Assembly: GCF_045037415.1 (NCBI RefSeq)
Contig: NZ_CP173438.1
DNA: 64,000 nt
Source of the DNA: Escherichia coli
GTDB taxonomy: Bacteria; Pseudomonadota; Gammaproteobacteria; Enterobacterales; Enterobacteriaceae
Direction: 5' to 3' (one strand)
Positions 55,764-61,150 of the stretch are shown here, in pieces (position 1 is the stretch's first letter; each line of letters begins with the position of its first letter). The notes under the pieces were generated by a model. That model searched no databases. It worked only from the letters and a program-made list of their open reading frames with translations, and was not told where the DNA came from. Both the position numbers and the translations under genes were made by a program.

Positions 55764-56600
55764 TTGGCGTCGCTGGTGGTGATGAAAAAAACACTAAGTG
55801 AGGCCACTGCGATGACAGTCCAAATATCTGCGGAATCCCTTTCTCCGCTACATCATAACCAACTTCCCGTCATCACTACTGAATTGCTTGCCAGTTTGTA
55901 TGGCACGGAAGTAAATGGTATCCAGCAAAACTTCAAGCGCAACATCGCCAGATTTGTCGTAGGAAAGCATTTTTTTAAGCTGGAAGGTAATGAATTACGC
56001 GACTTCAAAAACAGACTGACAGATAGTCAGTCAGTTGCTAAACATACCCGATCCCTCATTCTCTGGACAGAACGCGGCGCAGCTCGCCATGCCAAAATGC
56101 TGGAAACAGAACAGGCCTGGGAAGTTTTCGAAAAGCTGGAAGATTGTTATTTTAGCCAGCGTCCAGAGAGGCGGAGTACAACTACCGATGACCGTACTCC
56201 CTTGCGTGATGCCGTTAATATACTGGTCGGCAAGAAAGGCATGATGTATCCCGATGCCTACACCATGATTCATCAACGCTTCGCCGTCTCTCACATAGAA
56301 CAACTGTCACAGACGCAAATGTTAGAGGCGATTGAATACATCCACTGCCTGCTACTCGATGAAAATCACCCAACCATTCCAGATTTTTCTTTTATCACCA
56401 CTATCAAAAATGGAAAAGTGACCGGGATGCGCCATGTTGCCAAAGGCGAACATCTGATGACCTTTGACGCTTTCAAAGAGATCGCTGAGCGGGCAGGGTA
56501 TCTGGTGATCCACAGCGACAATCTGCGAAGTATGACACTGGATAAATTGATGGTAATGGGGAAAAAGTCGGCTATATCCGTTGCTAATTCAGCATTTTGA
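55764..56600 (+). CDS. ORF6N/KilA-N-domain protein (antirepressor-like)
   Basis: N-terminal ...LPVITTELLASLYGTEVNGIQQNFKRNIARFVVGKHFFKLEGNELRDF... pattern; start codon uncertain. Confidence 0.6.
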   Translation: MASLVVMKKTLSEATAMTVQISAESLSPLHHNQLPVITTELLASLYGTEVNGIQQNFKRNIARFVVGKHFFKLEGNELRDFKNRLTDSQSVAKHTRSLILWTERGAARHAKMLETEQAWEVFEKLEDCYFSQRPERRSTTTDDRTPLRDAVNILVGKKGMMYPDAYTMIHQRFAVSHIEQLSQTQMLEAIEYIHCLLLDENHPTIPDFSFITTIKNGKVTGMRHVAKGEHLMTFDAFKEIAERAGYLVIHSDNLRSMTLDKLMVMGKKSAISVANSAF

Positions 56601-56628
56601 CAGGTTGTTTGGGGCGGAAATACTCTAT

Positions 56629-56696
56629 TTGCGCTTAAAAAGGTATTTGACCACGACCAGCACGAGACCGAATACCTCTGTCAAAGTACCGCCCAT
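56629..56696. repeat. Direct repeat copy 1 (68 bp): 3'-end remnant of a membrane-protein gene
   Basis: 63 of 68 positions identical to 60051-60118; minus strand encodes a 23-codon remnant MGGTLTEVFGLVLVVVKYLFKRK preceded by a stop. Confidence 0.85.
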
Positions 56697-56774
56697 ATAA
56701 AACAGTTACATATGCACTTGATGACTAAGCTGGCACCAGGTTAACACCTGGCGCCAGCTTGAAGGAGACTTCAG

Positions 56775-57698
56775 TTATTGGTTTCTGAGGAAAGCGATTC
56801 TTGAAAGGGTCATTTGCGTCTGGCAGTCGACCATTTTCTTGACTTCAGCATCTGTTCCCTGCATTGAAACTTTACCGCACATAGCATCCTTAGTTTTGAT
56901 CCACTGACGCTGAGAAGGCAGCAAATCTTTTTTCTTCGCCGGGGTTAACTTGCTCCAGACGGTACTCAAATCAGAGTCGGCATTCGCAAATGCCATTCGG
57001 GACTGATCAAGGTTGTCAGCTTTTTGCGGCTGAAGTTGTGCCTGTCTCTCTATTTGCTTCTCCGCCTCATACTTAGCCTGTTCTTGCGCCCTGAGTTGCA
57101 CCTGTTGTTCCGCTTCAATTTGACTCTGTTGGGCATCCTTAGCCTGCTGGATTTTCTGCTGCTCAACGATCGGGGTGATAATGGAAAGCGATGTCAGTAA
57201 AGCGGCGCCCACTGATATCGGATTATCAGTAGAGGTTTTTACAAAAACGTTTTTCTGATCGTCGGTCGCCTGCACGGTGTAGGTGATACGTTTTGAAAAG
57301 GCGTTTGCGTTGTTCTCCAAAAACAGGCTTTCCATTTGCTTATCGAGATTACGATTAAAATTCTTTCTGTAAGCATCTGAAAGCTGGACGTACTCGTTCG
57401 CAGATAGAGTCATCGTCACGGTCCCTTCACAAGTTTTCATTGTGCTGCCCGTGTCACTTGATGTTGTGGAGATCTCAGAGATGGCTAGTTTGATCTTGTC
57501 CAGTGTGCTTCGTTTGGTCTGATTAGTGACATCAGGGTATTTATCGACCTGTTCAGAGAGTCCTTCATAAGCAGATTTTTTTAATAAATCCATGAGAGCT
57601 GACTGGGTTATTTCCGAAGAACAACCGATCTCATCTTTTTTGTTATCACAGCCTGTAAGGGCAATGGCGAGTAAGAGTACTGAGTATTTTAATCTCAT
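56775..57698 (-). CDS. Prophage lipoprotein with LprI/DUF1311-like C-terminal region
   Basis: Lipobox LTGC after signal peptide MRLKYSVLLLAIA; Gln-rich coiled-coil middle; C-terminal two-Cys region ...WIKTKDAMCGK...MVDCQTQMTLSRIAFL. Confidence 0.65.
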   Translation of the reverse strand: MRLKYSVLLLAIALTGCDNKKDEIGCSSEITQSALMDLLKKSAYEGLSEQVDKYPDVTNQTKRSTLDKIKLAISEISTTSSDTGSTMKTCEGTVTMTLSANEYVQLSDAYRKNFNRNLDKQMESLFLENNANAFSKRITYTVQATDDQKNVFVKTSTDNPISVGAALLTSLSIITPIVEQQKIQQAKDAQQSQIEAEQQVQLRAQEQAKYEAEKQIERQAQLQPQKADNLDQSRMAFANADSDLSTVWSKLTPAKKKDLLPSQRQWIKTKDAMCGKVSMQGTDAEVKKMVDCQTQMTLSRIAFLRNQ

Positions 57699-58885
57699 GA
57701 ATTCCCTTTAGAGTAAGGATTGGTTTTTAAGACGCGGTCTGTAATCAGTCCCGAGAGCTACAGTAAACAACGCTGAGCACTGAACGCATCACAGGTAAGG
57801 TAAAAGGTGATATCGGCAAAGGCTGTGAAACCTTTAATTCAACAGATGGGAACGGTATGCGCAGGATCCTGTAACGACGCTCCCAAAACCGGAAACCTGT
57901 AAGGCATGTTTTCGCTGCTGAACTTAATATACGAACCTGCACTATCATGAACATATTTTATATCGTTATACCCCGAGTGATTGTGCCCGGCAATGGATAG
58001 TGTCCTGGAGGAACTATTTCTACTGTAAAAGGTAGATATTTAATTTCAGTTTTGAATTATTCCCTGCTGTTAATAACAATGGCTGTATATGGCACCGAGT
58101 AGGCATTTTTTCGCTTACTGAAGGGCAGCTGTGAGCGAGGAACAGACTTTCCCTACTTCGTTGAGAGTACACCTAGTACAATCAAGGCTAAATGATAAAA
58201 ATATACAAAATATCATATTTATGATATATATAATGGCATTAATCTTATTCTTGGATTACGTTGAAAGGGTAATATTATATTTGTGTAACATAGTTTAGAT
58301 AACAATGCCGTTATGGGGGGGGAAAGACATTTCAACATATTAGCTTTGTATCTAACGCTCATGTAGATCTCGATTTTGAACTTAAAGAACAATTATTTTT
58401 TAGAGAGCAAGGTATTTTTGGGGAACAAAAACATAAAGTAATGGAGAGAGGAGAATGTATCAAAAAATCATCGATTTAATTTAGATTGTCCGTATAGTTG
58501 GGGGTAAGTCGAATCGCTGGGCTACATGGAATATTGTGTCAAGTAAAAATATATTTCAATCTTGCAATAACCGATTGTTGAAAATAATGTCAAATCTTAA
58601 TGGTGAATGGGGAGAATATAATAAACATGAGTCGATATTATGCAAATGGATTTAAATATTTTATACCCGAAGACATAGGGTTTCGAGAGTTCGATGAGAC
58701 TACTTTGAATGCTTTCGAATTTGCTGGCTAAAACATATAGGTTATATCTTACATCTGTTTGTAATGGAGCGTAGATGCGACAAGCTACACCATAATAATC
58801 ATATTATGATATATTGTTAAGTTGTTATGGCATTAAATAAAATTATGTCATTTTGTTAACCAAGCAAGAATCAAAGGACTTTTAG

Positions 58886-59584
58886 ATGGGTACGGCATTA
58901 ATTTCAAGCTTTATTAGTGGTGCAATAGCTATAATCTCTATTGCTATATCTACTTATAATCAGAATAGAATAAACAAGCTCAATGAATCACTGGATGTAA
59001 GGAGAAAACATCAGTACTATATTGAACCGTTAATTCGCTCAGCTTCAGACTTACAAAGCCGTATTTATAATATATTAGAATTGGGGTTCATTGAAGAGTT
59101 TTATCATAATGGGAATAAGCGCCAACAAGATTATGTTATCAACAATACTGTTTTTCTTTTTTCCCAGTTTTTTGCATGGACAGAAGCTGCCCGCATAGAC
59201 ATTCAATACCTTAGCCTAGAAAAAAATAAAAAAATGAGGGAGTTTATTAGATTACAGAACAATATTAACTCATTAATCCAAACAGACGTCTTTGGTCAGT
59301 ATTTTATGTTTTTCATAGGAGAGCAGAGAGCTATTGCAGAAAAGATGCTGATATCAACAGATACTGGATTTGATTGCATAGGTTACGGCAGTTTCACAAA
59401 GGAAAATTGCTTTATCAATGAGCCATTTTTTTTAGATTTAAACAATGAAGTGATAAATATGACAAGAGATATCGGAATTTATAAAGAAAGGCTAATCAGA
59501 ATACAGCACGCGTTAATCGATTTAATTAATTTTCTTGATCCTGGCATGATTCGATTTGACGGAAAAAAATATGGAAAAATATAA
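58886..59584 (+). CDS. Hypothetical single-pass membrane protein (232 aa), AT-rich foreign-looking gene
   Basis: N-terminal TM helix MGTALISSFISGAIAIISIAISTY then ~200-aa soluble region with no recognisable motif; AAAGGA RBS. Confidence 0.6.
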   Translation: MGTALISSFISGAIAIISIAISTYNQNRINKLNESLDVRRKHQYYIEPLIRSASDLQSRIYNILELGFIEEFYHNGNKRQQDYVINNTVFLFSQFFAWTEAARIDIQYLSLEKNKKMREFIRLQNNINSLIQTDVFGQYFMFFIGEQRAIAEKMLISTDTGFDCIGYGSFTKENCFINEPFFLDLNNEVINMTRDIGIYKERLIRIQHALIDLINFLDPGMIRFDGKKYGKI

Positions 59585-59769
59585 CCCAGATGATTCGTAT
59601 CAAGGTAAGTTGCTATATGTATCAATTTAATTATGGTTGGGTGAAATTTATGTTAATAGTAGCGGAGGGTTAGTTAAAATATGCTCTCAGTGATTTTTGG
59701 ATAGTTCTTTTATTTATCATTGAAAGTAAATATGTATAGCTTCAAGATTTACAAGTGAATCTGTTTATT

Positions 59770-59801
59770 GACAGTCCGCTTATGGCACAGAGCGGACTGT
59801 C
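59770..59801 (+). terminator. Hairpin, possible terminator of the 232-aa gene
   Basis: Inverted repeat GACAGTCCGC...GCGGACTGTC; weak downstream T-run. Confidence 0.4.
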
Positions 59802-60046
59802 ATATTAAATTTGGCTCCACGCCATAGATGTGTCAGCTCATATCTTATCTAATACACACAATAACTTTCTCATTCTTGGAGAATTATTTTTTTAAGGGTA
59901 GGTGTTGACGTTAGAGCAAAAGAATGGTGATTTTTTTGATGTGTATTACGTTGGAACTGATGGGAATAACTATCTGTTTTCAACGCACTGCTAATTTATC
60001 AAGGCCCTTTGATCAGGGCCTTCGAAAGACTGTTGGACCGAGAGAG

Positions 60047-60652
60047 TTACTTGCGTTTAAAAAGGTATTTTGTCACGACCAGCACGAGGCCGAATACCTC
60101 TGTCAAAGTACCGCCCATGTACAACTGTAGTGTTAAATCCTCAAATTCCAGCTTACCTGCGCCGTCGGCAATAAATACACCATTCATTATCAGAAGTTGG
60201 AAAGCAAGGATAATCAGGAACCATTTCCCGTATCGTTTTTTTAGAGCGATTTCTGCTTCAAAATCTTTGTTGTTGAGTTGTTTGCGCTCATGCTCGGTAT
60301 CAAGTGAATTCACCTGTTTCACAGATGTGAACTCGGTCAAGATTTTACTCTCAGTACGGGTGACTTGTTGAGAGGGTGTAGCAGTTGGAATTCTTTTGCT
60401 AGACGCAGCTACAGCCATTTTGCGAGCTTCGGCAGCTCTTTTTCTGGCTATTCCGCGAATACGGACAGCCGTTTTTTTGGGGGCGTGCGAAACCTTTGGC
60501 TGAGGTGAAGCTTCGTCAGGAGACTGAACCGGAGTTTCATCGTCCTCCGGCTCAACCTCTTCTGCTAACTGACGGTGTAGGTTGAGGGAATCCTTCAGTC
60601 TGCGTGCTACTTCCTGTTTGAAACGGCTGTTAAAATCGTCATCCGATGGCAT
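60047..60652 (-). CDS. Hypothetical membrane protein: charged, disordered N-terminal region plus C-terminal two-TM hairpin
   Basis: WFLIILAFQLLIMNGVFIA and GGTLTEVFGLVLVVTKYLF hydrophobic segments; start 10 nt after the upstream stop. Confidence 0.65.
   Translation of the reverse strand: MPSDDDFNSRFKQEVARRLKDSLNLHRQLAEEVEPEDDETPVQSPDEASPQPKVSHAPKKTAVRIRGIARKRAAEARKMAVAASSKRIPTATPSQQVTRTESKILTEFTSVKQVNSLDTEHERKQLNNKDFEAEIALKKRYGKWFLIILAFQLLIMNGVFIADGAGKLEFEDLTLQLYMGGTLTEVFGLVLVVTKYLFKRK
60051..60118. repeat. Direct repeat copy 2 (68 bp): authentic 3' end of the 201-aa membrane-protein gene
   Basis: Encodes C-terminus ...QLYMGGTLTEVFGLVLVVTKYLFKRK of ORF 60047-60652. Confidence 0.85.
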
Positions 60653-60661
60653 TTTAAAGCG

Positions 60662-61150
60662 TTACCCCAACCTCAAGTTCTTTAAACGATAAGTCATCGC
60701 ATCGTCAGATACGCCAAAATAATGCGCCATTATATAACTTGGTTGACCGTCAGCGTGCAGTTTTCTGACCTCATCTACCGGCATCAGAAGTTCTGCTGCG
60801 AACTTGTTTGCAAAAATTTCATCAGGATGCGTTCCGGCGCTTGCGGTTTCGCCACGTAAATCAACGTACTCATATTCATCGCTATGCGATGCTTGCCGGG
60901 CGATGTAATGCCCCAACTCATGCCCACATGAAAAACGTTGACGAACTTTGTTGTCATCACTGTTTAGAAAGATCGCTGGATCTTGATCTTTTTGTTTAAT
61001 CAGTGCGCCAGAAACTTTCCCAGGAAGATCGGTAATAAAAACATCTAATCCCATGTCGTGAGCAATTTTCGCTGGATCAACAGGGAAACCACGCCCGCAC
61101 CAGAACGTGTCCAGCACTCGCCGGGCGTGCTCTCTTGGGTTGGTAGCCAT
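60662..61150 (-). CDS. ImmA/IrrE-family Zn-metallopeptidase (COG2856-like)
   Basis: HEXXH motif in SCGHELGHYIA; 162 aa; GGAGG RBS. Confidence 0.75.
   Translation of the reverse strand: MATNPREHARRVLDTFWCGRGFPVDPAKIAHDMGLDVFITDLPGKVSGALIKQKDQDPAIFLNSDDNKVRQRFSCGHELGHYIARQASHSDEYEYVDLRGETASAGTHPDEIFANKFAAELLMPVDEVRKLHADGQPSYIMAHYFGVSDDAMTYRLKNLRLG

Follow-up and report, generated by a model that had tools for sequence, protein, structure and literature searches.

A long noncoding gap in an Escherichia coli ST131 prophage, probably a lipoprotein-gene spacer joined to a decayed nuclease-like gene from P2-type cargo

The Z/fun locus of P2-like phages is a well-known site of variable cargo (PMC9122126; bioRxiv 10.1101/2024.10.15.618418), and accessory prophage genes known as morons, together with their decay, are treated in Juhala (2000) and Cumby (2012), as cited in those two sources. 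The locus analyzed here belongs with both. It lies in a 64,000-nucleotide stretch of Escherichia coli contig NZ_CP173438.1 (assembly GCF_045037415.1; hereafter, the window), where 1187 bp (57699-58885) separate the gene of an LprI-family lipoprotein (56775-57698, minus strand) from the gene of a 232-amino-acid (aa) protein (58886-59584, plus strand). In all probability, this gap consists of the LprI spacer and a dead nuclease-like gene from P2-type cargo, the product of ordinary prophage cargo decay with no new element involved; it is noncoding because two pieces have been joined in it, the larger of which is a dead gene. Like the morons described for other prophages, the segment in question is an AT-rich accessory unit with a terminator-like hairpin at its end and, presumably, its own promoter, and one of its members was lost by mutation; the only difference is that the donor phage type can be identified via co-transferred backbone DNA.

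A preliminary description of the window had reported about 1.2 kb of AT-rich noncoding DNA between the lipoprotein gene and the 232-aa gene. The extent and noncoding character of the gap were confirmed: its longest open reading frame (ORF) in any frame encodes 69 aa (57745-57954, minus strand), and the RefSeq/PGAP annotation of identical ST131 genomes places no feature in it. The claim of AT-richness holds for the right two thirds (58128-58885, 31.8% GC) and fails for the left part (57699-58127, 42.4% GC), the average of the whole window being 49.0%; the low-GC tract continues past the gap, through the 232-aa gene, to approximately 59860. Positions 56500-60200 are 100% identical to the chromosomes of E. 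coli ST131 strains (EC958, JJ1886, and ~400 others). The host element is a lambdoid prophage, in which the replication genes lie on one side of the gap and the Q antiterminator gene on the other. Within the inspected 21.7 kb of EC958, the gap is the largest unannotated stretch, a second such gap of ~1 kb also being present. The gap is a composite of two unrelated pieces, a left one (57699 to ~58107) and a right one (58128-58885), and about one third of it is demonstrable pseudogene, with most of the rest representing DNA that once preceded that pseudogene or that lies upstream of one of the two flanking genes. This two-piece structure, the P2-like source of the AT-rich piece, and the lack of any detectable remnant in the left 429 bp were not part of the preliminary description.

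The pseudogene (58313-58731, plus strand) derives from a family of ~150-aa proteins with a PD-(D/E)xK (restriction-endonuclease-like) fold, as established by tblastn, alignment, and a lesion map. Alignment and translation of three diverged variants of the 758-nt leader of the 232-aa gene revealed protein-like conservation that runs across shifting frames. One of these variants, L006, contains two open ORFs of 63 and 61 aa which, when joined, yield a 150-aa conceptual protein. At 100% coverage and identities of up to 87%, this reconstruction retrieves >1,500 intact proteins, each ~150 aa long, whose sources include Yersinia, Dickeya, E. coli, Vibrio, and Nitrosomonas as well as many metagenomes. 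A translated search of the kind proposed in the preliminary description, with the intact relative P0121 against the gap, gave a match with E = 2.5e-22 that covers residues 7-151 at 58321-58713 and has in-frame stops inside it; the DNA alignment with three intact genes is colinear. The suggestion of decayed gene remnants is thereby borne out, given that 58313-58731 aligns over the full length of the intact proteins with six deletions and with loss of the catalytic residues. No Pfam match was obtained for the ORF fragments of the gap or for the reconstructed protein.

The deletions in the window copy measure 2, 11, 26, 1, 2, and 1 nt and follow positions 58467, 58492, 58544, 58580, 58625, and 58713, respectively. 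The start codon (58313-58315) is out of frame when the poly-G tract that begins within it has eight residues, and the frames actually opened from it stop at 58366 (eight G) or at 58479 (nine G). Because of the six deletions and the out-of-frame start, 58313-58731 was filed as a pseudogene rather than as a member gene. Moreover, the catalytic motif FDLGC...VECK, present in 50 of 50 homologues, reads FNLDC...VGGK here. The short ORF of 34 codons that had been noted near 58627 is real: it starts at an internal ATG of a 43-aa ORF (58600-58731, plus strand) and ends at 58731, and alignment to intact proteins identifies it as the C-terminal piece of the dead gene, with the stretch MSRYYANGFKYFIPEDIGFREFDETTLNA of the 43-aa ORF corresponding to residues ~122-151 (...CQYYINRFKHLIPAGVELWEYDEVVMSA) and the 34-codon ORF aligning to ...YYINRFKHLIPAGVELWEYDE... 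of the intact proteins. Over codons 56-155, the ratio of non-synonymous to synonymous change (pN/pS) between the dead copies of ST131 and of the P2-like phage P2-EC58 is 0.68, within the 0.66-0.75 of off-frame controls, versus ~0.18-0.2 for intact genes.

All six frame-breaking deletions are common to P2-EC58, suggesting that the nuclease-like gene was already dead before the ST131 and P2-EC58 copies diverged. The P2-EC58 copy is the more decayed, with four extra indels and five premature stops. The L006 copy carries a single 1-nt deletion and would have died independently and recently; since this is its only lesion, the tandem of nuclease-like gene and 232-aa gene would be older than the decay.

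Intact members of the family (P0121, P0123, P0125, and P0129 among them) share an alpha-beta-beta-beta-alpha-beta core and an invariant D...E-x-K signature (D60, E71, and K73). The restriction-endonuclease-like fold was found for an intact relative, the protein examined being that relative and not the window copy, and the fold neighbours of the intact family include the XisH-like protein 2okf, AF1548 (1y88), CdiA-CT toxins, and NgoMIV. Searches of the intact relatives against Pfam, NCBIfam, and PADLOC returned no significant family model, and a sequence search of the PDB gave no match. The family thus resembles small stand-alone PD-(D/E)xK nucleases in its core fold and in D60, E71, and K73, its intact members being putative nucleases; in contrast, the window copy has N...G-G-K at these positions and is unable to encode such a fold. 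The intact genes are found singly, in chromosomal islands, in a defence-island-like region of E. coli TA054, and, in P2-like prophages, beside the tail-fibre-assembly gene. An obligate pairing of the nuclease-like and 232-aa genes was ruled out, each being alone in most contexts.

The right piece of the gap is the beginning of an AT-rich 1.73-kb segment (58128-59856, plus strand) that is colinear with, and over 1741 aligned positions 86.2% identical to, the Z-region of P2-EC58 (AJ512683; L001 227-1956). A P2-like prophage of E. coli EC-107 (L005) holds a counterpart that is likewise colinear, at the same 86.2% identity, between the tail sheath and tail-fibre-assembly genes, and a third variant, ~74% identical, occurs in a different context on contigs L006-L008. 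The last 83 bp (59774-59856, plus strand), which matched 31 P2-like phage genomes, are a remnant of P2 backbone: they correspond in P2 itself to the spacer just after the tail-fibre-assembly gene G (NC_070905 15364-15446), ending 3 nt from its stop codon, and the database records of P2-EC30 and P2-EC53 label their counterpart 'left inverted repeat'. The colinearity with P2-EC58, together with this attached backbone, indicates that the segment was copied out of a P2-type Z/fun slot into the lambdoid prophage.

The likeness to the P2-EC58 Z-region extends to the noncoding leader, the ORF of the 232-aa 'lysogenic protein', the flanking inverted repeats, and the six deletions of the dead gene. In P2-EC58, however, the unit lies between the P2 tail genes FI (tail sheath) and G, whereas here its neighbours are LprI and a 201-aa gene of the lambdoid prophage; because of these flanks, and because only the 83 bp of G-proximal spacer came along, the segment is best described as former P2 cargo and not as a P2 locus. 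The two copies also differ in how they have been recorded, in that the AJ512683 entry treats the leader as promoter DNA and leaves the pseudogene unrecognised. Both gene families are typical cargo of the Z/fun slot: a tail-fibre-assembly gene is adjoined in L071/L072 by an intact copy of the nuclease-like gene and in Providencia (L010) by a homologue of the 232-aa gene. The cargo of the window differs from these in having left the P2 slot with P2 backbone attached.

In contrast to its dead neighbour, the 232-aa gene is intact and under purifying selection, with a dN/dS of 0.12-0.25 between variants. Its product (phrog_5606; NCBI name, 'lysogenic protein') has >290 homologues, which are widespread in Enterobacterales and beyond, and in its AlphaFold model (pLDDT 86) a membrane helix at the N terminus leads into a helical bundle, for which a fold search returned generic helical bundles only. 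The sole functional hint is a weak PADLOC match (E = 1.8e-5) to RTasTM, a membrane partner of defence reverse transcriptases. Among 5,426 complete E. coli genomes, 412 (~8%) have kept the gene.

The left piece of the gap (57699-58107, minus strand) is a constant spacer upstream of the LprI gene. It retains 98% identity beside LprI in prophages that carry other cargo, as far as 58107 in strain CFSAN061769 (L003) and 58099 in strain S42 (L004), beyond which both prophages have quite different genes, including HNH and GIY-YIG nucleases. Given this conservation beside differing cargo, the left piece was assigned as the LprI upstream region and the constant arm of a cargo hotspot. With differences at 8 of 409 positions, it has diverged about as much as the LprI coding sequence (24 of 924), and it presumably contains the LprI promoter and 5′ region. 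For the left 429 bp, no open stretch matched Pfam, protein searches returned nothing except ORF calls made at this very locus, and comparison with phage genomes gave no DNA match. A minus-strand 'GHNHSGY' motif resembling that of metallophosphatases proved to be a false lead.

The slot between LprI and a gene pair encoding the 201-aa protein and an ImmA/IrrE-type metallopeptidase (window ~58100-60025; L003 4410-7600; L004 4400-6500) is a cargo hotspot of this prophage family, which in other E. coli strains holds HNH, GIY-YIG, and hypothetical genes instead of the P2-derived segment. The gene pair is conserved beside the hotspot in related prophages: the 162-aa metallopeptidase (60662-61150, minus strand) matches the PADLOC capP model (E = 2.4e-25), and the 201-aa protein (60047-60652, minus strand), which has no family assignment, follows it in the same orientation. 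An 81-nt direct repeat, 89% identical between its copies (56626-56706 and 60048-60128), encloses the stretch made up of LprI, the gap, and the imported segment. On the right, the repeat forms the 3′ end of the 201-aa gene; on the left, it is a fragment, situated between ORF6N and LprI, that is also found in prophages with other cargo. Recombination at the hotspot probably left this repeat as a scar. The ~170 bp (59857-60024) that separate the P2-derived segment from the terminator of the 201-aa gene match none of the compared loci.

A variable feature of the gap is the poly-G tract at the start of the pseudogene, which has eight residues in the window (58315-58322, plus strand), the first G being the last base of the ATG. 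Among sampled ST131 genomes, it is the sole difference in otherwise identical 1.36-kb stretches, with lengths of 7, 8, 9, or 10 G. Across 408 complete genomes of the ST131 type, tract lengths were derived from three identity-band counts, which gave G8 in 184 genomes (~45%) and, for the others, inferred numbers obtained by subtraction (G7 in ~10, G9 in ~195 or ~48%, and G10 in ~19). G9 is the length in all five contigs of metagenomic origin, one of which is viral. Nine G place the ATG in frame with a remnant ORF of 55 aa (MGGGKTFQHISFVSNAHVDLDFELKEQLFFREQGIFGEQKHKVMERGECIKKSSI) that ends at 58479 and constitutes PHROG family phrog_7353; in-frame products are on record for G6 (46 contigs), G9 (891), and G12 (2). 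The tract is evidently unstable. Its variation could reflect real slippage, homopolymer error in long-read sequencing, or both, and some of the G8 calls in long-read genomes, perhaps including that of the window, may be such errors.

Several observations weigh against the view that the gap holds nothing more than a spacer and a dead gene. Over the N-terminal ~50 codons (6-55), ST131 and P2-EC58 differ by nine synonymous and nine non-synonymous changes, giving a pN/pS of 0.21 as compared to an off-frame baseline of ~0.7, and the 55-aa ORF is open with nine G, as in most short-read assemblies. Synonymous divergence between ST131 and P2-EC58 is higher in the pseudogene (0.45) than in the 232-aa ORF (0.16), a discrepancy that may reflect either synonymous-site constraint in the latter or mosaic, partly separate histories. 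Lastly, the left 429 bp are accounted for only by their conservation with LprI. The N-terminal observations invite the reading that the 55-aa remnant is a living small protein switched on and off by poly-G slippage. Homopolymer contingency loci of this type underlie phase variation in Neisseria, Haemophilus, and Campylobacter, and the present tract resembles them in that it extends from the last base of a start codon and differs in length (G7-G10) among near-clonal genomes that are otherwise identical at this site, with the in-frame form in about half of the complete genomes and in every metagenome-derived contig; the recorded in-frame products and the existence of a PHROG family point the same way. 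Unlike those loci, the tract lies in a gene already dead downstream and is known from genome sequences alone. In P2-EC58 and EC-107, moreover, two frameshifts and three premature stops interrupt the 55-aa stretch, with the 232-aa gene still intact; the peptide is without the catalytic core of the fold, and PGAP does not call the ORF even with nine G. The pN/pS value over these 50 codons is a weak hint of residual constraint, derived as it is from 18 changes, and homopolymer errors in long reads could account for much of the G8/G9 split among complete genomes: within what is apparently one series of near-identical genomes (Esc10, Esc15, and Esc18 versus Esc16), the stretch differs in length by 1 nt, probably in the tract. 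A switched small protein is therefore considered very unlikely.

Two further readings concern the leader as a whole. In one, its 758 nt act as RNA, either as a long structured 5′ untranslated region or as a separate noncoding RNA that controls the 232-aa gene. The leader has been kept colinear in three diverged variants, it contains two related palindromes (58212-58229 and 58799-58811), and the protein it precedes weakly resembles RTasTM; some types of defence reverse transcriptases are reported to use noncoding RNAs. Yet there is no reverse transcriptase near the 232-aa gene, the more distant 232-aa homologues have short, unrelated upstream regions of 180-360 nt, and the leader tolerates indels of 1-26 nt, its conservation pattern being explained by former protein coding, as the full-length alignment to intact proteins indicates. 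A scan of 56500-60500 against Rfam 15, at a permissive threshold of E <= 1, found nothing in the gap, the only hits being two chance matches to eukaryotic families outside it (E 0.26-0.58); no tRNA or tmRNA was detected near the gap, and a search for tandem repeats of the type III antitoxin-like kind yielded only trivial short runs. Neither an intact gene nor a structured RNA, either of which the preliminary description had named as grounds for abandoning its interpretation, was thus encountered, the only gene being a broken one, and a role of the leader as RNA is judged extremely unlikely. In the other reading, the region is mainly regulatory, an AT-rich promoter zone silenced by H-NS in which the gene-like fragments are coincidental. 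In E. coli, DNA that has been acquired horizontally and is bound by H-NS typically has a low GC content, the contrast here is 32% with 49% for the window, and AJ512683 annotates -35 and -10 signals within the region. However, fragments matched at E = 2.5e-22 are not coincidental, a promoter consensus scan found 10 sites versus 11.1 expected from shuffled sequence (i.e., no excess), and the annotated -10 is not conserved, so that almost no probability is attached to this reading. Since silencing and pseudogene status are compatible, silencing would be an added property rather than an alternative. A decayed gene joined to the LprI spacer remains the preferred explanation, to which a promoter or untranslated-region role of the leader and H-NS silencing of the AT-rich DNA may reasonably be added.

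Candidate regulatory features are found on both sides of the pseudogene. The former upstream region of the nuclease-like gene (58148-58312, plus strand) is 88-94% conserved with P2-EC58, and from 58270 onward it is homologous to the DNA preceding an intact gene (L017); the palindrome seen here, ATATCATA-TT-TATGATAT (58212-58229), is next to a TATAAT sequence. The region directly upstream of the 232-aa gene (58732-58885, plus strand) contains a Shine-Dalgarno sequence, AAAGGA (58873-58878), which is conserved in all three variants and to which the ribosome-binding site annotated in AJ512683 maps, as well as a candidate promoter identified by consensus match only (58814-58843, plus strand). The second palindrome, ATCATA-T-TATGAT (58799-58811), lies ~75 nt upstream of the gene and is also perfect in the diverged L006 variant. 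These two related AT-rich palindromes may be operator sites. The -35 and -10 signals of AJ512683 map to 58652-58657 and 58676-58681, respectively, inside the pseudogene, and lack conservation, TAGAAT having become TAGGGT. In the promoter and terminator scan, only one element stands out, a hairpin at the right boundary of the segment.

This terminator-like hairpin, here called R (59769-59802, plus strand; core GTCCGCTTATGGCACAGAGCGGAC, 59774-59797), forms a 13-bp stem of -13.8 kcal/mol (DNA parameters) and corresponds to the 'left inverted repeat' of AJ512683. At the left edge of the imported segment is a degenerate motif, L (GGCAGCTGTGAGCGAGGAACAGAC, 58124-58147, plus strand), whose stem no longer pairs; its homologues are the 'right inverted repeat' of P2-EC58 (L001 217-245) and motifs present in P2, L003, L019, and L022; the L stem of P2-EC58 shows a compensatory change from C-G to T-A. 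R and L are inverted relatives of a single 24-nt hairpin with a 7-bp stem (GTCCGCT/AGCGGAC) and a 10-nt loop, R reading GTCCGCT-TCTGGCACAG-AGCGGAC; the copy in the window has one mismatch to the family consensus. A possible degenerate R copy (GGCTGTATATGGCACCGAGTAGGC, 58083-58106, plus strand), in itself a match not above chance, ends the constant arm, and the version in S42 (GGCTCTATATGGCACCGAGCGGAC) departs from the R consensus at seven positions and directly precedes an L-like motif. The constant arm of the prophage ends exactly in the linker between this possible R and the L motif.

Conserved structured sites of this type sit at the cargo boundaries in the window, P2, P2-EC58, and E. coli TA054, an L/R pair bracketing the Z/fun genes of P2, the cargo of P2-EC58, and the chromosomal segment of TA054 that contains an intact nuclease-like gene. 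Sites of the pair are located at L030 911-925 and 2501-2583, L022 3856-3870 and 6774-6797, and L003 7382-7440. An exact-pattern scan of one genome per species returned 40 stretches, almost all in Enterobacterales, with one or two per genome, and because only one of these 40 copies in other genomes adjoins P2 genes, the hairpin is not simply a part of the P2 backbone. Twelve of 44 copies have an inverted partner within 70 nt downstream, and such R-L doublets split an AT-rich island of Trabulsiella into two cassettes and separate the cassettes of L069 (3287, 5485, and 8265). The hairpins, judged by eye, do not resemble attC or dif. A 2004 study of P2 by Nilsson, Karlsson, and Haggard-Ljungquist (Mol Biol Evol 21:1, cited in PMC9122126) reportedly concerns, to go by its title, site-specific recombination at variable P2 loci. 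The pattern fits an exchange of cassettes at the hairpins and fits equally well homologous recombination at shared terminators. That the R/L pair is a dedicated exchange site, through which AT-rich cassettes move among P2-like phages, lambdoid prophages, and Enterobacterales islands in an integron-like manner without a known integrase, R and L standing side by side as doublets wherever cargo is missing between them, is regarded as unlikely; if it were true, the novelty would lie only in its breadth, namely the non-P2 contexts and the cassette arrays.

The history proposed for the gap combines these elements. The left 0.4 kb is the conserved LprI upstream spacer, serving as a fixed arm of a cargo hotspot in the lambdoid ST131 prophage, and the right 0.76 kb is the start of the 1.73-kb AT-rich segment from a P2-like Z/fun slot. 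The original cargo would have been a tandem of a ~150-aa gene with restriction-endonuclease fold and a 232-aa membrane-protein gene, of which the first decayed before ST131 and P2-EC58 diverged, while the second stayed under selection. The wreck of the first gene would now be only spacer DNA, which we infer to carry whatever promoter drives the 232-aa gene.

For the widespread ST131 prophage, this explanation removes a false lead, in that its AT-rich gap conceals no living gene and no novel RNA but a dead copy of a small nuclease-like gene, and it corrects the record of the P2-EC58 Z-region, where the same DNA is annotated as promoter sequence only. It also provides a concrete case in which accessory cargo passed from a P2-type phage into a lambdoid prophage and retained some backbone DNA of its donor. 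What selection has preserved, in about 8% of the complete genomes of E. coli, is the gene of the 232-aa membrane protein and not its former neighbour.

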